Part shown: positions 1,100 to 64,000 of the stretch, piece by piece
Layout of the letters: every line of letters begins with the position of its first letter
Position numbering within the stretch: the first letter of the stretch is position 1
From: Octopus vulgaris
Taxonomy: Eukaryota
Length of the DNA stretch: 64,000 nt
Assembly: GCA_951406725.2 (NCBI GenBank)
Contig: OX597816.1
Span: 42,966,001 to 43,030,000, forward strand
Direction of reading: 5' to 3'
Program-made: the position numbers and the translations under genes
Notes under the pieces: generated by a model
The model's database searches: none
Seen by the model: the letters and a program-made list of their open reading frames with translations, nothing else
Told to the model about the DNA's origin: nothing

Positions 1100-1689
1100 T
1101 AAGACGTAAACCCAGTGCCACCTGCTGAATGGTTGGGTCATCAGCGACTAAACTGGCAACCCTATCAACCTTGCTTCATGAGAACATTAACAGTTGGACA
1201 CCCAGCAGAACGAAAAATAACACCTGTAAAATAGCGGAAGAGCGCATGAGGAGTGAGCGGCTATCCAACAATATGTGTGCGTGAGGACGTGGAAATACCT
1301 GGGTTGGTAACCAGGGTCGCGGTGGGCCCACTGGGAATTTTGTCAGTGAACAGGTCGCGGTCTCAAAACGACGAAAATATTTTGGCAATTTAAATTTAAA
1401 TGTTGAAGTGAATCTAACGGTTTTTGTGTGTTTCTTAGATGCCTTATAAACACTTTCCACGCTGCAATTGTTTTCGTTCCAGCACACAATCTCAGTTCAG
1501 CTCAGCTCACTTGCTTTGCAAGCACATCTCCGTAATACATACATACATACATACATACATACATACATACATACATACATACATACATACATACATACAT
1601 ACGTACATACGTACATACATACATATATACATACATACATATATATGTATGTATGTATGTATGTATATGTATGTATGTATATGTATAAA

Positions 1690-2300
1690 AATACAAACTG
1701 GGACAAAAACGGAAAACATTTAGGAGACGATACCAAAACACGGACGGGACATTCGAAGTCTTCAATCTTCAGTCAAGAACCGGATCATCCTCGCAATTTC
1801 GGCTGATTAATCTTGAGATTGCTCCAATCTGGCCAGCCCCAAGGATAAACTATTAGATTCCTTGGAAAAAACTTCGAATATACACAAACCAAGGACGGAA
1901 AAACGGACGATGTTACACGAATATGAATACAAAAATGATATGTAAAAACAATAATAATAATACGTAGAAACAATAATAATAATAAAATAACAATAACAGG
2001 ACATCACAAACAGGTGTCTTTCGACTAGACGGATTAAACTCAGCTGGCGTGTTAGGAATGTGCCTTGGGGCAGAGAGAAAAAAATGTAGATGTTACCGCT
2101 ACGGCTGCTAGAACCCGAAAGGCCAGCAATCGGTCAGTCAGTCACGCGAGAAGGGCAGAGAGAGGAAAAGAGAGACAAAATAATTAATGAGGGGGAGTAG
2201 AGACAGAGAGCGAGAAAAAGAGACAGGGGCAAAGTGAAGTGCAAAGTAAGAAGGCGAAGAAAATTAGGAGAGCGGGGAGAGAGATAGAGTCGTTTGTATT
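1690..2300 (-). mobile_element. Non-coding Penelope-pLTR/retrozyme-like element related to the 56323-57459 element
   Basis: 1690-1880 aligns by eye with 56335-56570 (shared tcttcagtcaagaaccggatcatc and aatttcggctgattaatcttgagatt). It is followed by a GA-rich tract as in the 56 kb element and sits between microsatellites. Confidence 0.65.
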
Positions 2301-2303
2301 TTT

Positions 2304-2334
<31 letters not shown>

Positions 2335-5312: not shown

Positions 5313-5386
5313 TGGCCGGATAACTGAAGAGATGGCGGCGTGGATTTCCACCTCGGCATCCGAAACTCGGAGTTTTATCATGGCTA
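5313..5386 (+). ncRNA. Type I hammerhead ribozyme motif in a pLTR-like cassette
   Basis: Stem I GAUAA/UUAUC (extendable), core CUGAAGA 5324-5330, stem II GAUG..GUGGA/UCCAC..CAUC, GAAA 5362-5365, near-palindromic stem III ACUCGGAGU, cleavage triplet GUU 5372-5374. Confidence 0.85.
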
Positions 5387-7016: not shown

Positions 7017-7129
7017 TATCATTGTTGTTGTTGTTGTTATCGTTGTTTTGTTGTTATTAGATATGTATGTTTGTATACACAGATAGAAAGACAAATATGT
7101 TATAGTTGATGAAGAAGTATGAAACACAA

Positions 7130-7298
7130 GGCGCAGGAGTGGCTGTGTGGTAAGTAGATTGCTTACCAACCACATGGCTCCGGGTTCAATTCCACTGCAT
7201 GGTACTTTGGGCAAGTGCCTTCAACTATAGCCTCGGGCCGACCAAGGCCTTGTGAGTGGATTTGGTAGATGGAAACTGAAAGAAGCCCGTCGTATATG

Positions 7299-7330
<32 letters not shown>

Positions 7331-7571
7331 AGTGTGTGTGTGTGTGTGTGTGTGTATGTTTGTGTGTCTGTGTTTGTCCCCCCAACATCGCTTGACAACC
7401 GATACTGTTGTGTTTATGTCCCCCGTCACTTAGTAATTCGGCAAAAGAGACCGTGAGAATAAGTACTGGGCTTACAAAGAATATGTCCTGGGGGGTCGAT
7501 TTGCTCGACAAAAGGCGGTGCTCCAGCATGGCCGCAGTCAAATGACTGAAACAAGTAAAAGAGTAAAAGAG
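7130..7571 (+). mobile_element. tRNA-derived SINE family A, full length
   Basis: A-box tggctgtgtggtaag, B-box gggttcaattcc, internal (TA)n(TG)n, 3' end gactgaaacaagtaaaagag. More than 10 near-identical copies in the window. Confidence 0.9.
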
Positions 7572-26807: not shown

Positions 26808-27653
26808 CAACAACGTTTCACATCACCGATTATTCCAACGATTGAAGTAAAGATACATCATTCCAATATATAAGTAACAATATCTGCAGACGTATAGTAA
26901 TACCATGAATCAGCAATGTATAGAAATTTGGATGCTCTCCGGCAAATCATTCCAGAATGCTCTGGGCGTTCATATATTCAATTGTCAAAACGAAAGATTT
27001 TGTCTTCTATTCAAGACACAAAATAGGTGATGAGTTTATGTTACAGACATCGCCTATTTATAATACATATATGGAAGAAAAATGACTCACTGTAAATTAA
27101 ATGTACATGTTAGTGAATAGATTTTACAGTGTTCTTAATCAATGAACTAACCAGTTGCTAGATCAAAATTCCTCAATGAACAGTACTGTAGGTATTTACA
27201 CGAATTAATCGATTTCCTTCTACCAAATTGTGACAAGCTGTAGTTCAACCGTGTATCATTCTGTGTGACAGAGCCCTCATCGTTTTCAGCCTTTTATCCA
27301 TATATATGTAGACGTGTGATCTGAAAAGAATCGAGGATTCAGAGCATTTCAATAGTGACGCTGTAAGTCGTTTTGTATGTTACAGAATGTATAAATATGA
27401 GGTAACATTCTAATTGCAATGGGTTTACGTGTAGCCTATGAACTTAAAGACATGCTTCTAAGAGATTACACGTTACGTTTGTTACAATTATATGCAGCGA
27501 AGAAATATTATAGTACTTCAACAAGAAAATTTCCTATTGCTTATAATTTCTAAAACATGAAGTAATATTTTTGATGCAGCTGTAGAAAGAAATTTCTTTG
27601 GGGTAATGTTCCTTTATAAGGTTTAGGAATATCCAGGTAATATTAAACGATTA

Positions 27654-27963
27654 TTCTGTTGCGTCTGGGGAGAGTCATTCTCTTTTAGTGCCTTATTATT
27701 TAACACACTCACCACTAAAATTTCCACTTATTTCTTATTTTTATTTTCTAAAATTTTCGTTGCGTCTTGCAACCATTTCAATAGTCTTGCAAGACGCAAC
27801 GAAAATTTTAGAAAATAAAAATAAGAAATAAGTGGAAATTTTACCGGTGAGTGTGTTAAATAATAAGGCACTAAAAGAGAATGACTCTCCCCAGACACAA
27901 CAGAATATGCTTCAACACACGAACTCATATAAAAGAATCTTGCAAGCCAAATCCAAAAATGAA
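27654..27963. mobile_element. Fold-back Penelope-like insertion with a 12-bp TSD
   Basis: 121-bp inverted arms 27652-27772/27787-27907 (3 mismatches) and a 14-nt spacer. attaaacgatta is duplicated at 27642-27653 and 27964-27975. Confidence 0.85.
27748..27784 (-). ncRNA. Minimal hammerhead-like motif with a U3:A8 core
   Basis: Minus strand reads CUA UUGAAAU G GUUGC AAGAC GCAAC GAA AAUU U UAG. Stem I CUA/UAG, stem II 5 bp, palindromic AAUU stem III. Position 9 is U rather than A. Confidence 0.6.
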
Positions 27964-30598: not shown

Positions 30599-32078
30599 GG
30601 ATGGATAGTACAGACAACTGACTCAACACTACAGTAAACTAACGTACACATGTATGGTCTCCCTAAGATTCCCAATGATGGTATTCCATTAAGACCTATA
30701 GTGAGCTCTAGAGGGTCAGCATGTCATCCACTGAAGTGCTTCCTTGTGGATATAATCAGTCCATTAGCAAGAAAGTCAACATTGTACATGAGGAATTCCA
30801 CCCACTTCGCAGAATTAATCAAGGATAACGCCATTGAACCCTACCCAATGGTGAGTCTAGATGTGATAAGACTGTTCACCAAAAGTCCTAACTGGTGAAC
30901 ACTATAGGTGATTCAAGAAAAAACTTGTGAAAGACACCTATCTAGGAGAACATACTAGTATACCAATAAGAAATTTGATGGAAATGTTGACTTTCTGTGT
31001 AGAAACTACCTGGACACTGATATATATCGACAAGAAGAGGGTTTAGCTATGGGTTCGCCATTATCACCGATAATAGCTAATATATACATGGAATATATTA
31101 GAGAATTTGACTTTATGATCAACACCACTAAAAACAACCCTATGGCTGCTATATGTTGCTGCAAACTTTATACTCTGGCGCCACCAAGAATATGGCCAAG
31201 TTCTGTTAGATCATGTGAACTCAATAGAGCCATCCATACAGTTCACAATGAAAAAGGAAAGAAAAGAAAAAGGCAATCAGCTAGCATTTCTGGACGTATC
31301 AGTAACAAGCACCAAGTATGGATTCAGAACATCCAGATATCGCAAGCCGACCTTAACTGGACGATACTTCAACTTCAATTCCCACCATCCATACAGTGTA
31401 AAAAGAGGGATTGCCCAGTACCTAAAACATCGAGCAAAGAATATAAGTAGCGAACGTGATACCTACCACTAAGAAATGATCAAGCTACGTAACAATCTAT
31501 TAAGCAACAACTAACCCCCAAACATACAATCCACTCCAATTATGAAGAAAAGAGAGGATGAAACCAATAAACTGTCCACAGTCTCTCTACCCTATGTGGA
31601 AGGTCTCTCCGAAAAGATACAAAAGATATGCGGTCCATATGACATCAGGACATTATTCAAGTGTAATACAACACCTTGCAATTATCTCCTTCCAGTAAAA
31701 CCACCAATAGAAGAGAATATGACCAAGAACTGCGAGTACTCCATACCAGGTTATACAATGGTGAAACATGCCGCCCCTAAAAATAAGGACAGATGAACAT
31801 CGCAAAGCTGTGACACGAGGAGATATTGATAAATCGGGTATTGCTGATTATGTATTGAAAATGGAGACTAACTCCACCTGTGAGATGAAGTTAAAATAGT
31901 AGACAGAGAACACCACTGGAAAATACGAAACGTAAAAGAAGCAGCACATACGCTAGGGCACAACAACCTCCTAAGCAGTACGAGTGCAGATATGAATAGC
32001 ATATGGGAACCCGTTTTAAGGAAGGATAGGAGAAAATTATATTTATAAGCCCTCGTATTCAATCCATAATTGCCCATA

Positions 32079-32131
32079 GGCATAAGGCGTAGTGGTTAAG
32101 AGTGCCGGCTATTAAACCCAAGTTTCCGAGT
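32079..32131 (+). other. tRNA-like 5' segment in the 3' UTR/pLTR of the Penelope element
   Basis: ggcgtagtggttaagagtgccggct is an A-box/D-arm-like sequence that breaks off at ..ccgagt. A B-box-like ggtttgaaatttccc lies at 32194-32208. Confidence 0.55.
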
Positions 32132-32211
32132 AATAATATAATAATAATGATAACAGCAGGAACATCGAAAAATACCTTAGTAATGAGAACCCAGGTTTGA
32201 AATTTCCCTAA

Positions 32212-32257
32212 GACACCTGATGAACGCTGAAGGGTACAGCAACCGAAATGATGCGTT
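32212..32257 (+). ncRNA. Decayed type I hammerhead in the Penelope pLTR
   Basis: GACAC CUGAUGA ..GCUG/CAGC.. GAAA UGAU GCGUU. The core is intact, while stems I and III carry substitutions. Confidence 0.7.
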
Positions 32258-32574
32258 AACAACAAAAATGAGGACAAATATCAGCCAAATGTAAATCATG
32301 TACATAATTCCTCATCTCTTAAATATAGAAGTGTATTATATAGATGGAGAGATCTTTTATCTCATTGACTATTCACCAATAGTCATCATTCATTTACCTA
32401 TTGTTACACCCCTCCAAAGCGTTCGCTTATTAATATATTTTTGTAATTTTTATATAACTATCTGATTTCTCATTCAAATTCAAAGATTTCGCTTGCATCG
32501 CTTCCCTCTCATAACTTACAAATATAAGCATATATATTTCCGCACATGCGCGTTGTTACATATAAGAATATTCT

Positions 32575-36639: not shown

Positions 36640-37052
36640 CATAAGTATGAATGTGCTTATCATAGGTGACTGTCAACCCAGTCTTCTATTGATATAGCTC
36701 GTGGTAAAATTTATGTAACACCTGCTTAAAACAACCATAAACTTAAAGTAGATGTGATGACAGAATTTTAATATTATTACTCAACAGAATTCATTTATAT
36801 CACCCTCTCAGATACTTTCGCCTGTATTTATTCTACTTTTCTTTATCCTAATACCCCTCCCTCGCTTTAACCTTAATGTAATTTTCCTCTAATATGGCCA
36901 CTCTATAACTTTCAGTTTCCCTTTTACCTTCTTCTTTTACTTACTTTCTTGTCTACAGTTTATATATTTTATTTTATTTCATTTATTTCACTATACATAT
37001 TTTATTCTATTCTATTTCTTATGGATATTTAAAAATTGAAAATATCATAACA

Positions 37053-37217
37053 GGCGCAGGAGTGGCTGTGTGGTAAGTAGCTTGCTAACCAACCACATGG
37101 TTCCGGGTTCAGTCCCACTTCGTGGCATCTTGAGCAAGTGTCGTCTACTATAGCCCCGGGCCGACCAATGCCTTGTGAGTGGATTTGGTAGACGGAAACT
37201 GAAAGAAGCCTGTCGTA

Positions 37218-37268
<51 letters not shown>

Positions 37269-37487
37269 ATGTGTTTGTGTGTCTTTGATTGTTCCCCTAG
37301 CATTGCTTGACAACCGATGCTGGTGTGTTTACGTCCCCGTCACTTAGCGGTTCGGCAAAAGAGACCGATAGAATAAGTACTGGGCTTACAAAGAATAAGT
37401 CCCGGGGTCGATTTGCTCGACTAAAAGGCGGTGCTCCAGCATGGCCGCAGTCAAATGACTGAAACAAGTAAAAGAGTAGAAGAGAAT
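37053..37487 (+). mobile_element. SINE family A, full length
   Basis: Near-consensus copy. Confidence 0.92.
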
Positions 37488-40315: not shown

Positions 40316-40744
40316 TGTAATGTGCATGACGTTACTCATCTTTGCTTTGTGTAGCGCAATATTATATTTATAGAAAAATTATGTTGTTAAAGCATTTGGC
40401 AGATAGAATACTGTGGTTTTATAGCTTTTGGTGAAATGAGATAGAACACAAAATATAACAAACTGTTTGCGAAACTAACTTTGCAATATAACATACATAA
40501 CAAGTGGTTGTTTATACGTTGGACAGTGACGTTAAATACAAGCTGAATTGCCTGCATGGCAATAAGTATGTAATACGTATGTACGGGTGAGTGCGTTTTT
40601 GTGTGTCTGGATGTATACATTCCTGCACACATATATAGAGACACACATATATAGAGACACACATACAAAAATAGATATATTTACCACACAACTACGCCTG
40701 CGCCTCTCTATCTCTCTCTCTATATATATATATATACATATATA

Positions 40745-40925
40745 GGCGCATGCGAGGCTGTGTGGTAAGAAGCTTCTTTCCCAATCACATAGTTCTGGGT
40801 TCAGTCCCACTGTATGTCACCTTCGGCAAGTGTCTCGTCTACTATAGCCTTGGGGTGACCAAAGACTTGAGAGTGAACCCGGTAGACGTAAACGGAAAGA
40901 ATCCCGTCGTATATATGTATATATG

Positions 40926-40956
<31 letters not shown>

Positions 40957-41160
40957 ATGTTTTTGTGTCTGTGTCTGTCCCCCTCTCTAACATTGCTTAA
41001 CAACCGATGCTGGTGTGTTTACGTCCCTATCACCTAGCGGTTCGGCAAGAGAGACCCATAGAATAAGTACTAGGCTTACAAAGAATAAGTCCTGGGGTCG
41101 ATATGCTCGAATAAAGACGGTGCTCCAGCATAGCCACAGTCAAATGACTGAAACGATAGA
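40745..41160 (+). mobile_element. SINE family A
   Basis: Full-length, moderately diverged copy. A partial further tail lies at about 41265-41360. Confidence 0.88.
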
Positions 41161-42591: not shown

Positions 42592-43799
42592 TCTCTATCT
42601 ATCTATATACACACTATTTATGCCGTGCCCGACGATCTTGCTAGGACACCACAGGTGTTAGAGAGTACTGTATTGCATGCTCTCAACACATGAAACTAAC
42701 ATTATTCCATAGAATTATATATTATATTTATTAAATAATGTTTAACTCTCACCAGCTGAACTACGTTTTTGTTGATTTTACCATCACGGAATAGTACACT
42801 GCGTATATATGTGTGCGTGTGTGAGAGAGATAGTATACATATATTTGCATATATATTTAAGTGTGTATGTCATCATGTATATATGCATTATTTTGTGTCA
42901 TACAACTTTATTCGTTTGAAAAACAATTTCGAACTCCCTATTACATTTTTAATGAATTTTCATTATATGAAATGTGAAAACAATGGGGCAAGCAATAAAT
43001 AGGTTAGTTGCATAGCTGATAGATTATAAAGAAATAGTATTAAATTTCTTTCTAAAAATATGAAAATATGCATCAGGACGGAACAGAAAAAAACCTACTA
43101 CGAACTTTAAACAATAGATTTAATGTCAAACTTAACAGGCTAACTTTTTTCCGCGACAGTTCTCTTAGCAAGAGACAATCGGTGCTTTATAAATATATGA
43201 AAAGAGTGCGTGTAACCGTAAACAATAAAAAAATTTGTAGGAACATTCACGAAATGTTTGTAAATATTATATCATCCTCACATATAAGTAGTGATATTGT
43301 CTTGCTTTGTTTTCGTATCTTGTTAAACAGCGTGTGAAATATTTTATTGAATATTGTGGAATATATATTGTGAAATATTGTGTTAAATATTTTGTTAATT
43401 ATTTTACTTTTCAGATATTTTAATGAAAATAACTTCTAGAAGCCATATTTTTTCAAAGACACATTCAGTAAGAGTTTCGAAACCTACTAAACATGCGTTT
43501 TCATGAAAAACAAAAAGTTATATTTAACTTTTTTTTTTTATTTTTCCATATATTTCTAAGAAGAAATAAACTTACTGTTGATGTAAATTTAAAATTGATT
43601 TATGAAAACCATCTTCAGAAATATATACAGCTTACGTAAACATATCTGCAGACATCTAGATACATTATAATACGAATTTATAGGGAACCAAATAAACATA
43701 CAGAAATTTCAATTTTATTGTTGCGGTACTTTCCTCGTACCAAACTCGTCAAGTTGTTTGCATATAACATGTAACATTGATAGAAGTTATTAAAATGCA

Positions 43800-49872: not shown

Positions 49873-50308
49873 TGCGTAGGAGTAGCTGTGTGGTAAGTAG
49901 CTTGCTTACCAACTACATGTTTCCGGGTTCAGTCCCACTACGTGGCACCTTGGGCAAGTGTCTTCTACTATAGCCTCGAGCCGACCAAAGCCTAGTGAGT
50001 GGATTTCGTAGACGGAAACTGAAAGAAGCCCGTCGTATATATGTATATATATATAAGTGTGTGTGTATATGTTTGTGTGCATGTGTTTGTGTGTCTGTGT
50101 TTGTCCCCCCAACATCACTTGACAACCGATGCTGGTGTGTTTACGTCCCCGTAACTTGGTGGTTCGGCAAAAGAGACCGATAGAATAAGTACTAGGCTTA
50201 CAAAGAATAAGTCCTGGGACCGATTTGCTCGACTAAAAGGTGGTGCTCCAGCATGGCCACAGTCTAATGACTGAAACAAGTAAAAGAGTAAAAGAGATAG
50301 TAAAGAGT
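49873..50308 (+). mobile_element. SINE family A, full length
   Basis: Near-consensus copy. Confidence 0.92.
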
Positions 50309-55564: not shown

Positions 55565-56322
55565 CATACATATATGTCTATGAATAGACACTTAGACATA
55601 TATATGTGTGTGAGCCGTTCTTTCTCTTCTTCTGCATCTGCATAAATATTTACACGCACAAGCACGTGCACACGCACACACACACACACACACACACCTA
55701 TATTATTTATGTTTCCTTCTTTTGGTTTTTCATTTTCTTTCCATTCATTTACATATTTGTGAGGAAAGTGAATTGGCCGAATAAATATGGTGTGAATACT
55801 TCGGCTCATATATCTTCTTGTCTTTGCATAGACGGTCCTGATTCCGGATAGTAGCGTAAAGTGACGAACCTGACGCTCGGACGATGTAGCTTACAGAGCG
55901 GAAATTAAATAGCAAGCTCGTAGTTCGGTAATTTAGCACCAAATCAAGCTGTCAAAATGCCTAACGGCTATTTGGTTTAGAGGATTGTGTTCGAATTCAT
56001 TGCTGTGTATGTCATCTTATTTCCTATTGGTCTTATTTATATGACTAATGCAAAACTCGATCATTTATGCGACTATATGTTTGAGTGAATGCAATTTTTG
56101 TAAAAGTCTGCTTGTTTAATTATAGCTATCTACAAGAATTTTGTTAGGTTTTTGTTTCGATTTTATTTATTTATTTATTTTGGCACAAAATGGAATATGT
56201 ATGTGCAACAGATAGACAAAAAGATACAGACGTGCATATATATACATGTGTGTGTGTGTATATATATATGTATGTGCGTGTATGTGCGCCTGTGTATGTA
56301 TATATATATATATATATATATA

Positions 56323-57459
56323 TTAAGGTATGTAGAAAAATACAACATGGACAAGAACGTATAACTCTTAGAAGACGATACAATAAACACGGACAGGAAA
56401 TTCGAAACCCTCAGTCTTCAGTCAAGAACCGGATCATCGTAGTAATTTCGGCTGATTAATCTTGAGATTACGAGATCACGGCCAGCCCTCCAAGAAAAAC
56501 TAAGCAACGAGCATTAGAAAAACTAAGCTGGAAGCGTAGATTTCCTGGAAGAAGGATCGAATGCATACGAACACCAGGACAGCAAAAGGGACAGATATAA
56601 AAAAACAAAAAACAATAATGGAATACAGAAACATGAAATACAGAAGCATTAACGGTGAAAACAACAGTGTCTTACGACTGATAACAAGCAAACAAATTTT
56701 TTCTCTGGCGCAATGGAAAAAGCCTTTATAGCGGCGGACGAAAACAGCGATGTTAACACGACGAGGGTCAGAAGCTGAAAGGCAGATTTCGGCCAACAGT
56801 CACGTGACAGAGAAGAGGGAAAAGAAAAGAAAGAGAAGCAAAGGAAGAGAGAGAGAGAGAGAGAGAGAGAGGAGGGACAAACGCAACAAAGAGAGAGAAG
56901 AGAGAGAAAGAAGGAATCAGAGAGGAGAAGGGATGGGTGTCGAAGAATGACCTGTGAGTGCAGAGCGAGACAAAGAAATAGGAGGGTAGTGGAAGACTAG
57001 ACCAAAGAATCAGAGGAAAGAGAAGAGAAAAAGAGGATGAGTAGAGAGAAAAGAGAGAGAGGGGGACAGATCAAGTAAAAATGAGAGAGAGAGAGAGAGA
57101 CAAACAGAGAGTCGTACCAATTATTAAGAATATGTGCTCACATTAATGTTAAGGGGGGTACGGGGCGCCTGGAATATATGTTAAGGTATGTAGAAAAATA
57201 CAACATGGACAAGAACGTATAACTCTTAGAAGACGATACAATAAACACGGACAGGACATTCGAAACCCTCAGTCTTCAGTCAAGAACCGGATCATCGTAG
57301 TAATTTCGGCTGATTAATCTTGAGATTACGAGATCACGGCCAGCCCTCCAAGAAAAACTAAGCAACGAGCATTAGAAAAACTAAGCTGGAAGCGTAGATT
57401 TCCTGGAAGAAGGATCGAATGCATACGAACACCAGGACAGCAAAAGGGACAGATATAAA
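56323..57459 (-). mobile_element. Non-coding element with 279-bp direct terminal repeats (858-bp period), retrozyme/pLTR-like
   Basis: 56323-56601 equals 57181-57459 with one mismatch. GA-rich interior, no meaningful ORF, flanked by (TA)n. Confidence 0.85.
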
Positions 57460-57473
57460 CACACACATATATA

Positions 57474-57504
<31 letters not shown>

Positions 57505-57814: not shown

Positions 57815-58334
57815 AGCATATATATACACACACACATATATATATATATATATATGCATACAAACTTACGTACATATATACTATATATGCAGAGGTAGAC
57901 ATAAATAAGAGACAGGATGAGAAAGAATGTACGTTCCTAAGAGATATCACTCAGGAGGGGAAGACATTATCTGGAGATGTAGTATGCATAGAGAATTGTA
58001 GGTGTTTGGTGTCATATACTGGAGAATTGAAATATTATTTCAAACAACCTCAAATTTCCTTCGTCATTCTTACTGAGCCATAATACTTTTTCTACATATG
58101 TCTGCTTTCCGCTTTCCTAGTCTTTATGTATGTTCGTAGCGTTCCTCTAACGTTTTATTTTTTTGCTTAGACATGCCGGCTATATCTTATTTTTTCTTTC
58201 TACTTTTGTATTCCCATTGGACTCCTTAGAAGAAGCATTATACAGCTATCGTTTCATGATTCGTCGAAAACAATATTGAGGATTATGACGGTTGGATGTA
58301 AACGGTGCAGAACTTCTGTCTTGGAAGTAAATTA

Positions 58335-58711
58335 GGCGCAGGAGTGGCTGTGTGGTAAGTAGCTTGCTTACCAACCACATGGTTCCGGGTTCAGTCCAAC
58401 TGCATGCCATCTTGGGAAAGTGTCTTCTACTATAGCCTCGGGCCGACCAAACCCTTGTGAGTGGATTTGGAAGACGGAAACTGAAAGAAGCCCATCGTAT
58501 ATATGTATATATATATGTGTGTGTCTGTGTTTGTCCCTCTAGCATTGCTTGACAACCGATGCTGGTGTGTTTATGTCCCCGTAACTTAGCGGTTCGGCAA
58601 AAGAGACCGATAGAATAAGTACTAGGCTTACAAAGAATAAGTCCCGGGGTCGATTTGCTCGACTAAAGGCGGTACTTCAGCATGGCCGCAGTCAATTGAC
58701 TGAAACAAGTA
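58335..58711 (+). mobile_element. SINE family A
   Basis: Near-consensus copy with a short microsatellite. Confidence 0.92.
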
Positions 58712-59019
58712 CGTAAGTAATGACGAATATATTATTATAATGCCGCACAAATATGATTAAAACAGCACGATATACATATACAAATGTAAAGTTATCTGTC
58801 GGGCTTATAAGATACTTGGCCTAAACGTCACAAATTTTCATTGGCACAAATACAGCTTTGTTTTCATTGGCGGAAGCAAGCTCATTTTCCAATCACGTAG
58901 TTTAGGTTTCAGACATTTTGAATAGCATCTTGTTGAAGTGTATTCTAAAACAGTCCAAGACTGATTAAGTGAATTCCGTTATCGGAAAATCTATAGAAGC
59001 CTATCGTAAATATATACAT

Positions 59020-59404
59020 ACTCTTTTACTTGTTTCAGTCATTTGACTGCGGCCATGCTGGAGCACCGCCTCTAGTCGATCAAATCGACCCCGGGACTTA
59101 TTCTTTGTAAACCCAGTACTTATTCTACCGGTCTCTTTTGCCGAACCGCTAAGTGACGGGGACGTAAACACACAAGCATCGGTTGTCAAGCAATGCTAGG
59201 GGGACAAACACAGACACACAAACACACACACACACACATATATATATATACATATATACGACAGGCTTCTACCAAATCCACTCACAAGGCATTGGTCAGC
59301 CCGGGGCTATAGCAGAAGACACTTGCCCAAGATGCCACGCAGTGGGACTGAACCCGCAACCATGTGGTTGGTTAGCAAGCTACTTACCACACAGCCACTC
59401 ATGC

Positions 59405-59408
<4 letters not shown>
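59020..59408 (-). mobile_element. SINE family A
   Basis: Reverse-complement copy with a small internal deletion. Confidence 0.92.
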
Positions 59409-59466
<58 letters not shown>

Positions 59467-61760: not shown

Positions 61761-62221
61761 CCTTCAATTATAAAACATATTTCTGTTAGAATTTCACCGT
61801 ATTTTACTTATTCCATAATAATTCATGATTAATATATATAAAGTATAAAGACAGATTTTCTAAAGAAACAGCATACAGATGATCAATAAACAGTCTTAAA
61901 AGCTTTTCCTGTAAGAAAAGATTTTTCAAAGCATTCGTCACGAATTATAAATCGAAATTATTAGAGATAATATGCTAATATAATTACATGCAGGAATTAG
62001 CAACCAAATAATTCACCAGAAAGCTATTTCTACATATTCGGCACCCGGGCAGCATTGGTTGACTAGTTTAGGTTCATATATTACTACATACACACAACCA
62101 AACACATACGCTATATTACATGTGTATAAGTTGATAGGTATACATATAAACATATATATATATATATGCGCGCGCACACACACAGACACACACATATTCT
62201 ATTACTATTTACTATTTACTA

Positions 62222-62642
62222 TTTTACTTGTTTCAGTCATTTGACTGTGGCCATGCTGGAGCACCGCCTTTAGTCGAACAAATCGACCCCAGGACTTATT
62301 CTTTGTAAGCCTAGTACTTATTCTATCGGTCGCTTTTGCCGAACCACTAAGTTACGGTGACGTAAACACACCAGCATCGGTTGTCAAGCGATGTTCGGGA
62401 GGACAAACACAGACACACAAACATATACACACACATACACATATATACATATATACGACGGGCTTCTTTCAGTTTCCGTCTACCAAATCCACTCACAAGG
62501 CCTTGGTCGACCCGAGGCTATAGTAGAAGTCACTTGCCCAAGGAGGATCCATGTGGTTCGTAAACAAGATCCATGTGGTTCGTGAACCTGGATCCATGTG
62601 GTTCGTAAACAAGCTACTTACCACACAGCCACTCCGACGCCT
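62222..62642 (-). mobile_element. SINE family A with an internal triplication
   Basis: Reverse copy in which gatccatgtggttcgt occurs three times in 62546-62606. Confidence 0.9.
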
Positions 62643-62666
62643 ATATATATATATATATATATATAC

Positions 62667-64000
62667 CTGCTTTCCTGTCTTTCCTCACCTGCCTTCTAAG
62701 GCCACTGGTCGACATCTTCCTCTCTCGTCGTCCACTATAATCCAGCGTTTGCAATACTTTTTTCGTCTGGCCTTAACAGCCCTTCTTATCTTGTTCTCCT
62801 TGTCCTGTCTCTCACTGTTATATATTTATTTTTCCACTGTTTATATATATATTTTTTACTGTTTATATGTTTGTACTGTCGTTACCGTCTTGCCTTTTTT
62901 TACCCCTCCGCGACAAGATCTCAGAATTTTAATTGATTTGCTTGTCTCGGGAAGGAATTTTTCATTCGAAGTATACGTCTCGCTTTTATCCTTCGAAACG
63001 TTTAGTAGATGAAACTTTAGCGACTGAAGAAGGGGATTTTTCGTTGTGCTTATTGTCCTGTATCTCCTTTTTTTGCTTGTCTTGTTCCTTGGTTGTGTCT
63101 ATGTTTTTCGTCTCTCTATGTGTTCGACGTCCTTTTGGTGTCCTGTACACATATATGCGTGTATATGTACATGTAGAGGTAGGTACGTACATACATGTTT
63201 ATATATATGCATATATTTTATTAACATATTATACGACTAAACGCACGCACCCTATTAAGTAAGATTGTTCTGTTTATCAAGTTCGCCTTGATATTAACTC
63301 TCACGCGACTCTGCCTCTTTCTTTCTTTCTCTCCCATTCCCTTTTTCGTCCTTTTTCCCTCACTTAACTTGTCTCTTCCTCTCTCTCTCCCCCTCACTGT
63401 TCTTCATGGTCTCCTCGCACCATTCCCCTTCTTCTCTCTCTTCCTCTTGCTCCTCCTCCCCCATTCCCGTCGTCCATCTGCGACGTACTTCCGTCGTAAC
63501 TGCTTTCCTGTCTTTCCTCACCTGCCTTCTAAGGCCACTGGTCGACATCTTCCTCTCTCGTCGTCCACTATAATCCAGCGTTTGCAATACTTTTTTCGTC
63601 TGGCCTTAACAGCCCTTCTTATCTTGTTCTCCTTGTCCTGTCTCTCACTGTTATATATTTATTTTTCCACTGTTTATATATATATTTTTTACTGTTTATA
63701 TGTTTGTACTGTCGTTACCATCTTGCCTTTTTTTACCCCTCCGCGACAAGATCTCAGAATTTTAATTGATTTGCTTGTCTCGGGAAGGAATTTTTCATTC
63801 GAAGTATACGTCTCGCTTTTATCCTTCGAAACGTTTAGTAGATGAAACTTTAGCGACTGAAGAAGGGGATTTTTCGTTGTGCTTATTGTCCTGTATCTCC
63901 TTTTTTTGCTTGTCTTGTTCCTTGGTTGTGTCTATGTTTTTCGTCTCTCTATGTGTTCGACGTCCTTTTGGTGTCCTGTACACATATATGCGTGTATATG
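62667..64000 (+). mobile_element. Non-coding partial-tandem element (833-bp period, at least 501-bp direct repeat), retrozyme/pLTR-like
   Basis: 62667-63167 equals 63500-64000 with one visible mismatch. CT-rich interior. Begins directly after (TA)n and runs off the window end. Confidence 0.85.

Follow-up and report, generated by a model that had tools for sequence, protein, structure and literature searches.

A young non-coding mobile element of Octopus vulgaris with a candidate split hammerhead motif in each of its direct repeats

The Element and Its Neighbors

The stretch of DNA analyzed here, hereafter the window, comprises 64,000 nucleotides of the Octopus vulgaris genome (assembly GCA_951406725.2, contig OX597816.1, positions 42,966,001 to 43,030,000 of the forward strand). 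It holds a repeat element of greater than unit length, an older copy belonging to a sister subfamily, and a second element of the same design and unrelated sequence:

56295-56322, no strand: (TA)n flank at the fixed end (the tract is also given as 56295-56323)
56323-57459, minus strand (sense): the element, a greater-than-unit-length copy of about 1.3 units of 858 nt
56323-56601, minus strand: R1, the 3' direct repeat, pseudo-LTR-like, with the family's fixed end on its low-coordinate side
56602-57180, minus strand: unique non-coding body of the 858-nt unit, covered by contigs in all four mapped runs except at masked repeats, and alignable to the older copy
56806-57113, minus strand: pyrimidine-rich (TC) low-complexity tract, with similar tracts in the older copy and the 833-nt element
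57114-57180, minus strand: junction, consisting of the CATATAT fixed end (57180-57174) and then a 59-nt spacer to CGACTCT at 57114
57181-57459, minus strand: R2, the 5' direct repeat, a 5'-truncated upstream copy
57460-57504, no strand: CA/TA microsatellite flank at the truncated end
1680-2310, minus strand: older sister-subfamily copy of one unit, with the same motif at 1766-1838 and a compensatory pair in helix III
62664-64000, plus strand: second, sequence-unrelated element of the same design, running past the window end
62951-63030 and 63784-63863, plus strand: split motif of the 833-nt element (descriptor matches), with the predicted cut of the first after 62979

The direct repeats of the 858-nt element are 279 bp each, stand at an offset of 858, and differ at a single position (56399 versus 57257). 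Alternatively, given that six of the seven additional bases at 56316-56322 and 57174-57180 are identical, they can be read as 286-bp repeats with two mismatches. The GC content of the element is 42%, its termini are TT...AA rather than TG...CA, and a target-site duplication is not discernible at the ends of 56323-57459, where both flanks are microsatellite. On the closed monomer the longest ATG-initiated frames encode 66 amino acids (plus strand) and 49 amino acids (minus strand); three longer stop-to-stop frames, two from this element and one from the 833-nt element, gave no match in Pfam, and the GIY-YIG endonuclease and reverse transcriptase frame of autonomous Naiad Penelope-like elements (PLEs) is absent from the 858-nt element by both frame and Pfam checks. 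A sequence-only reading of the window had described single-mismatch 279-bp repeats, a lack of coding capacity and of TG...CA ends, and repetitive flanks, and each of these descriptions stands, the left flank being (TA)n and the right flank CA/TA. As in a retrozyme, a non-coding head-to-tail unit carries a ribozyme motif in at least two repeats; the element spans 1.3 units but has two whole motifs, as R2, though 5'-truncated, retains the entire motif together with 114 nt upstream of it.

The older copy is 81% alike over its first 175 nt and can be aligned along the unit. At its 5' end, 19 nt of its 3' end are repeated in inverted orientation (1680-1698 versus 2292-2310), and its forward part breaks off at CGACTCT, not at the cut described below. 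A helitron-type or MITE reading of this inverted end was rejected, the young copy being without it and forming a partial tandem instead. CGACTCT, at which the older copy inverts, stands before the TC-rich tract of each of the three elements, at 57114 (minus), 2292 (minus) and 63306 (plus), and may represent a transcript start. The second element, which lies about 5 kb away, is likewise non-coding and consists of 504-bp repeats (two mismatches) with an 833-nt period and a (TA)n flank.

The window contains further repeats. A dispersed SINE-like family of about 430 bp, whose copies are 80-89% alike, is found at 7129-7571, 37052-37485, 40732-41154 and 49874-50297, with further copies at 58333-58711, 59019-59408 and 62202-62640; two of its copies face each other at 58333-59409. 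A near-perfect palindrome of 256 bp with 94.6% self-match occupies 27652-27907. A decayed coding element of Penelope type lies at 30650-32300 (plus), with a reverse transcriptase fragment at 30959-31447 that matches RVT_1 weakly, and a hammerhead core of conventional order with broken helices follows downstream of it at 32217. Conventional-order CUGAAGA...CGAAAC cores are also present at 5324 and 33369 (plus), and are probably decayed Penelope ends.

Family-Wide Occurrence and a Fixed End

Among the sequencing-run matches listed, 20 of the 24 runs, from 10 studies and under five organism labels, contain the stretch or part of it. Four of the 24 runs were mapped onto one unit (56602-57459). Two DNA-type runs gave 2,248 and 2,233 contigs, a run guessed to be RNA gave 60 and a recorded RNA run 2; summed depth is taken as neither copy number nor expression, and contigs cannot reveal RNA ends. 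Two runs were excluded as evidence: X19, with zero cover at 57182-57459, and X20, with a small share only. The 59-nt junction spacer is a family-wide feature, as seen in the depth bins at 57124-57181 and in contig pieces: at the head-to-tail junction its depth equals that of the body, and contigs in runs X3 and X5 cross it. The natural continuation from 57459 to 56602 appears as a joint in X1, X5 and X3, and the joined form is present in DNA runs too. A conserved 24-mer gave no match in metagenome, viral and prokaryote collections.

Loose contig ends, 18 of 261 of which were listed, identify one terminus of the family. Ends set against (TA)n before 57174 were found in at least 16 contigs in X5 and at least two in X3, while the sister subfamily shows such ends before 57207 in at least eight contigs in X1 and at least 20 in X5. 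The older copy at 1680 terminates within a few bases of the same place. Since one end is fixed, copies are not free circular permutations, a possibility that the sequence-only reading had raised for checking, and the minus strand reads as sense.

It is very improbable that the arrangement arose by tandem duplication at this locus alone, by an error of assembly, or as an inner part of a long coding element. No mapped contig covers the entire unit, as such an origin would have it, but unit and junction recur in 10 studies, with about 2,240 contigs mapped from either DNA-type run, and the shared terminus of many copies against (TA)n argues against local duplication; the repeats differ by one mismatch, a similarly designed element is situated 5 kb from this one, and neither an open frame nor a Pfam match was found. 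The 858-nt element is a non-coding mobile repeat that is abundant and family-wide rather than locus-specific, and the earlier proposal of a mobile element of greater than unit length is upheld in this respect.

A Candidate Split Hammerhead in Each Repeat

The clue to the motif was the published 3' end of Naiad_Obim, in which a helix closed by G-C precedes GAAA and is followed, after 23-25 nt, by CUGAnGA. The corresponding parts of the 858-nt element are as follows:

57273-57345, minus strand: split hammerhead motif in R2, a descriptor match with the cut-site triplet AUC
57345-57341, minus strand: helix II, 5' strand (GGCUG)
57329-57325, minus strand: helix III, 3' strand (GUAAU)
57324, minus strand: C17 (H17), after which the predicted cut falls
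57323-57318, minus strand: helix I, 3' strand (UCAAGA)
57312-57308, minus strand: helix II, 3' strand (CAGCC)
57307-57305, minus strand: core GAA
57304-57300, minus strand: helix III, 5' strand (AUUAC)
57285-57280, minus strand: helix I, 5' strand (UCUUGA)
57279-57273, minus strand: core CUGAAGA
56415-56487, minus strand: split hammerhead motif in R1, identical to that of R2, with the predicted cut after 56466
56466-57323, minus strand: predicted 858-nt monomer, as cleavage at both AUC triplets would release it

Each repeat holds the motif once, on the minus strand, GAAA preceding CTGAAGA by 24 nt. Its letters follow the usual hammerhead numbering, as also used in published hammerhead papers. 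In both repeats the core is complete, comprising C3-A9 (C3 U4 G5 A6 N7 G8 A9), G12-A14, A15.1-U16.1, C17 and G10.1-C11.1, and helices I, II and III measure 6, 5 (6 with a G-U pair) and 5 bp, respectively, if the upstream strand forms helix II. That strand precedes the cut site, where in known hammerheads it would come after CUGAAGA; the three helices cross one another in a pseudoknotted arrangement with the block order S-G-C. The sequence-only reading had seen a permuted hammerhead-like motif once per repeat; the full core and three helices found here are more than it could see.

The spacing of GAAA and CTGAAGA occurs at five sites in the window, compared with a mean of 0.17 (maximum of two) over 200 shuffled windows, and the full three-helix descriptor likewise finds five sites, compared with none in 300 locally shuffled windows. 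Two of these sites belong to the present element, one to the older copy and two to the unrelated 833-nt element; as the descriptor was composed after this element had been viewed, matches here and in the older copy arise by construction, and the shuffled windows measure specificity rather than independent discovery. As a separate observation, one site resembling type GCS matched a descriptor at 43618 (43527-43710, minus; GUU triplet), and one such site occurs in 300 shuffled windows too.

Several more conventional interpretations were considered. Descriptors found no nested three-way junction (CGS, GSC or SCG; types I, II and III) in the element, and their one relaxed match, in the 833-nt element, is a portion of the split motif; the types I-III descriptor, which also missed three conventional-looking control cores in the window, is a weak test when taken alone. 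Pairing for helix II directly after CUGAnGA amounts to 0 bp with zero or one bulged base and, by eye, to 1 bp with two. In the 833-nt element 4 bp are possible after this box, two of them G-U, and in the older copy 0 bp. Because the bases that follow CUGAAGA form no pairs adjacent to GAAA, type II and plain type SGC were set aside. The leader before G10.1 and the tail after A9 form only a weak helix, whose register is not constant. A plus-strand hammerhead (GAAA at 57262-57265, GTC at 57272-57274, and CTGATTA) was also discarded: positions 57265 and 57272 are variable among family members, and in the older copy GAAG and ATC stand in place of GAAA and GTC. A search of Rfam across the window gave no match at the gathering score and, at E values up to 10, only microsatellite-driven matches in the flanks, a blank that says little, since the conventional core at 32217 likewise went unrecognized.

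Eckert et al. (2023; PMC10085705) divide the hammerhead into blocks C, G and S that are assumed to be uninterruptible, from which six orders follow; types SGC and CSG were cleaved in vitro, CSG being known from two sequences, and the examples come from metagenomes, metatranscriptomes and RefSeq. The text of the supplement gave no match for octopus, mollusca or metazoa. The split motif resembles types SGC and CSG in its full core, in its three mutually crossing helices, in the position of the cut-site block before the GAAA block, in a linker of 4-5 nt between helix I and helix II strands, and in a candidate helix between the distal ends of helices I and II. It differs in that CUGAnGA is not followed by the 5' strand of helix II, which is found instead ahead of the cut, and this order falls outside the six thought possible in that paper, according to which known natural hammerheads have at most 1-2 nt separating CUGAnGA from helix II. 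The motif can be read as type CSG with an opening between A9 and G10.1. Within the literature searched, which covered few subscription papers, no report of the split form or of permuted hammerheads in Naiads was found; the strand order appears to be new, while the element type is known. Engineered hammerheads keep their activity when helix II is shortened to a single pair or exchanged for a linker, and the AUC triplet is cleaved; by analogy, a break at the A9/G10.1 junction is plausible. Cleavage after AUC at 57324 and 56466 is probable.

Variation, Folding, and the Question of Cleavage

Comparison of this copy with the older copy reveals differences at two of 42 constrained places and at nine of 31 free places (Fisher p=0.007). 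Both constrained differences belong to one compensatory pair in helix III, U-A to C-G, and a single compensatory pair in two sequences is not significant, being reached by 243 of 500 shuffles. Five variable places are listed in 57273-57345, three of them free and two in helix III with pairing kept, in a listing that starts at 10% and covers contigs close enough to be mapped. In the sister subfamily (loose ends before 57276) the box reads CUGAGGA, N7 alone being changed, and the bases after the CUGAnGA box vary freely across the family. MAFFT left the 833-nt element out of register, and the pair counts therefore stay with each element separately.

In X5, one loose end (behind 57296) has CUGCC for CAGCC and, where its consensus is poorly supported at the far end, CA rather than UH at the cut; this loose end counts against a working motif. 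By eye, a contig of run X1 shows between 57296 and 57396, relative to the older copy, seven T-to-C changes among nine changes in 24 bases; on the minus strand these are A-to-G changes, such as A-to-I-edited RNA copied into DNA would leave, and they come from a single contig.

A candidate fourth helix (57340-57332 with 57293-57286), joining the strand after the 5' strand of helix II to the strand before the 5' strand of helix I in the manner of the I-II interaction of published permuted forms, has 8 bp here and is equaled by 41 of 2000 shuffles; it is weaker in the older copy and the second element, where 267 and 431 of 2000 shuffles, respectively, do as well. Nested folding, which cannot score pseudoknots, keeps helix II and predicts competing pairings inside it. 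Folding of the whole repeat was no better than shuffles, and neither was that of the closed monomer (-125 compared with -121 +/- 6 kcal/mol over 12 shuffles).

These data bear on the possibility that the motif is a non-cutting fold derived from a hammerhead, or a relic, serving for example as a binding site for a partner protein in an ordinary non-autonomous Penelope-like partial tandem. The competing folds, the break at A9/G10.1, which is without precedent in the literature examined, and the lack of an Rfam ribozyme match would fit such a fold, as would the absence of canonical hammerheads from Naiads reported by Craig et al. (2021; PMC8557442). Against it, every catalytic letter and a cleavable triplet (AUC or GUC) are kept across the two window families, which share the strand order and have entirely different helix sequences; the conventional core at 32217 escaped Rfam as well, and engineered hammerheads tolerate the loss or reduction of helix II. 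With the retention of the core among Naiads, described next, we consider a non-cutting motif unlikely.

The Motif at the 3' Ends of Naiad Elements

According to Craig et al. (2021; PMC8557442), Naiads and other PLEs form partial tandems and 5' inversions at (TA)n targets, Naiads have hammerhead motifs listed as core or half-core only, and cephalopod Naiads are long-dead remnants. The last 300-500 nt of 28 of the 54 consensuses in the supplement were read by eye, families with core or half-core motifs being favored and most names being assigned from the order of the supplement file. The split order with full core and three helices was recognized in five of the 28 ends (Naiad_Obim, Naiad_Ovul, Naiad-4_Dst, Naiad-3_Chem and Naiad-2_Movir), those of Naiad_Obim and Naiad_Ovul being near-identical. 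One further end (Naiad Lpol) shows a related split in which the cut site comes first, one (Naiad Bfor) a partial motif, and four (Nbra-1, Nbra-3, Hpol and Smim) type CSG; in the remaining 17 of the 28 neither the split nor the CSG form was recognized. The type-CSG ends, which derive from nematodes and a spider, also show by eye a long interaction helix between helices I and II. Retention of the same core with differing helices among these Naiads argues against a non-cutting fold in the present element.

Three motifs of 11-13 nt from the element gave no match in the supplement of PMC8557442, and the link between element and Naiads is therefore one of design and not of primary sequence. The traits expected of a Naiad partner are present, namely a partial tandem, a fixed 3' end, 5' truncation or inversion, and a (TA)n target; these traits are also common to the Hydra and Neptune clades. 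As in Naiads, there are pseudo-LTR partial tandems, an inverted 5' copy (in the older copy), (TA)n targets and no canonical hammerhead; in contrast to Naiads, which measure 3.4-4.4 kb, the element is 858 nt long, lacks the endonuclease-reverse transcriptase frame and is young. Taken together, the element is likely to be a non-autonomous passenger of Naiad-type PLEs. The remnant status of cephalopod Naiads sits badly with an insertion diverged by 0.4%, unless a family outside those sampled is active.

Relation to Described Retrozymes

The element shares features with several described systems. Firstly, like metazoan non-LTR retrozymes (PMC7229834; 10.64898/2026.07.22.740005), it is a non-coding head-to-tail unit with a hammerhead motif per unit and a GC content of 42%, is likely moved by Penelope-like elements, and at 858 nt falls within the 51-972 bp range of the preprint (10.64898/2026.07.22.740005). 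Those retrozymes carry type I hammerheads, range from dimers to long arrays and have had their circles shown (Cervera and de la Pena, 2020; PMC7229834), whereas here a split, pseudoknotted motif accompanies 1.3 units, a fixed end, a microsatellite target and a circle that is only predicted. The preprint of Li et al. (2026; 10.64898/2026.07.22.740005) ties type I retrozymes to PLE pseudo-LTRs. Secondly, as in the pseudo-LTR hammerheads of Penelope/Poseidon, Neptune and Hydra (PMC4209133), the motif lies in both repeats upstream of a fixed 3' end; the latter are of conventional order with a minimal helix III that needs dimers, while the present motif has a 5-bp helix III and a rearranged order. 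Thirdly, the direct repeats of about 280 bp with a hammerhead, around a non-coding unit of 600-1000 nt, recall plant LTR retrozymes (PMC4918200), which have LTRs with type III hammerheads, TG...CA ends, a 4-bp target duplication and a GC content of over 55%. Neither a type III hammerhead nor TG...CA ends nor a target duplication was seen here, and GC is lower. The retrozyme family proposed by the sequence-only reading therefore stands in part: a non-coding unit with one motif per repeat is present, but the type I or type III hammerheads of the described classes are absent. Judged by its sequence, the element would work like a retrozyme and a Penelope-type passenger, yet is not in the described retrozyme classes.

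A Proposed Route of Propagation

The account that we tentatively prefer, at a likelihood that we would place just short of even, is that a non-autonomous passenger of Naiad-type PLEs is transcribed from the minus strand, that this RNA cuts itself at both motifs and yields an 858-nt circle, and that the circle is recopied into (TA)n. A transcript would begin ahead of the first motif. Cuts following the AUC triplets at 57324 and 56466 would then free exactly 858 nt, in agreement with the monomer that the sequence-only reading had deduced from the two motifs, and the resulting 5'-OH and cyclic-phosphate ends would be joined by a host ligase or by the ribozyme. Reverse transcription would start inside the RNA at CAUAUAU, 143-150 nt past the cut and primed by nicked (TA)n, with the borrowed reverse transcriptase running 1.3 times round and stopping at 57459.

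The fixed genomic end is situated 143-150 nt downstream of the predicted cut. From such an internal start a cut linear monomer would yield only about 150 nt of cDNA, so that copies of unit length and longer would require a circle, an uncut transcript or a template jump. That circles serve as PLE templates for more-than-unit copying was proposed by Cervera and de la Pena (2014; PMC4209133). The two repeats also share a G at 57330 and 56472, where T makes up over 99.8% of the summed depth in runs X1 and X5; a rare base common to both repeats fits one template copied more than once round, and a tandem source or gene conversion would explain it too. By eye, this rare base of the present copy favors a competing pairing register.

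A possible, though more doubtful, alternative is that the split hammerhead works but that copies arise from uncut linear transcripts, by tandem read-through or template jump, the ribozyme serving to trim, limit or regulate the RNA with no circular intermediate. In the Poseidon element of the anole, reverse transcription initiates internally, downstream of the hammerhead, on unprocessed RNA, and hammerhead cleavage was dispensable for insertion in vitro, with no reads ending at the cut; initiation also needed no homology to the target, on which account priming by (TA)n on CAUAUAU is put forward conditionally here. Further in favor of linear templates, and against a circle, the older copy ends at CGACTCT, as a transcript 5' end would, the same motif opening the TC tract in both other elements; long arrays are not seen; and the closed unit is not specially structured. 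Speaking against linear templates is that a conserved active core would sever the initiation site from the body of a linear RNA, that two whole motifs are kept in both young elements of the window, and that the rare variant is common to both repeats, with the reservation given above.

Implications

A broader reading, which we regard as possible but as leaning slightly toward doubt, is that the split hammerhead represents a seventh natural topology and is active, that it is the standard ribozyme of many animal Naiads and their passengers, rearranged rather than lost, and that it makes 858-nt circles here. Under this broader reading the split form would be distributed over cnidarian, ostracod and octopus families, and CSG over nematode and spider families.

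Hammerheads are the best-studied small ribozymes, and the catalog of their strand orders assumes that CUGAnGA is inseparable from helix II. If the reading is true, a natural exception in high copy number extends that catalog, a class of animal ribozymes escapes both Rfam and standard descriptors, and the statement that Naiads lack hammerheads is overturned. Four Naiad ends appear to add animal examples to type CSG. Moreover, the exact predicted junction makes the long-open proposal of circular PLE templates testable in a young, non-coding family.
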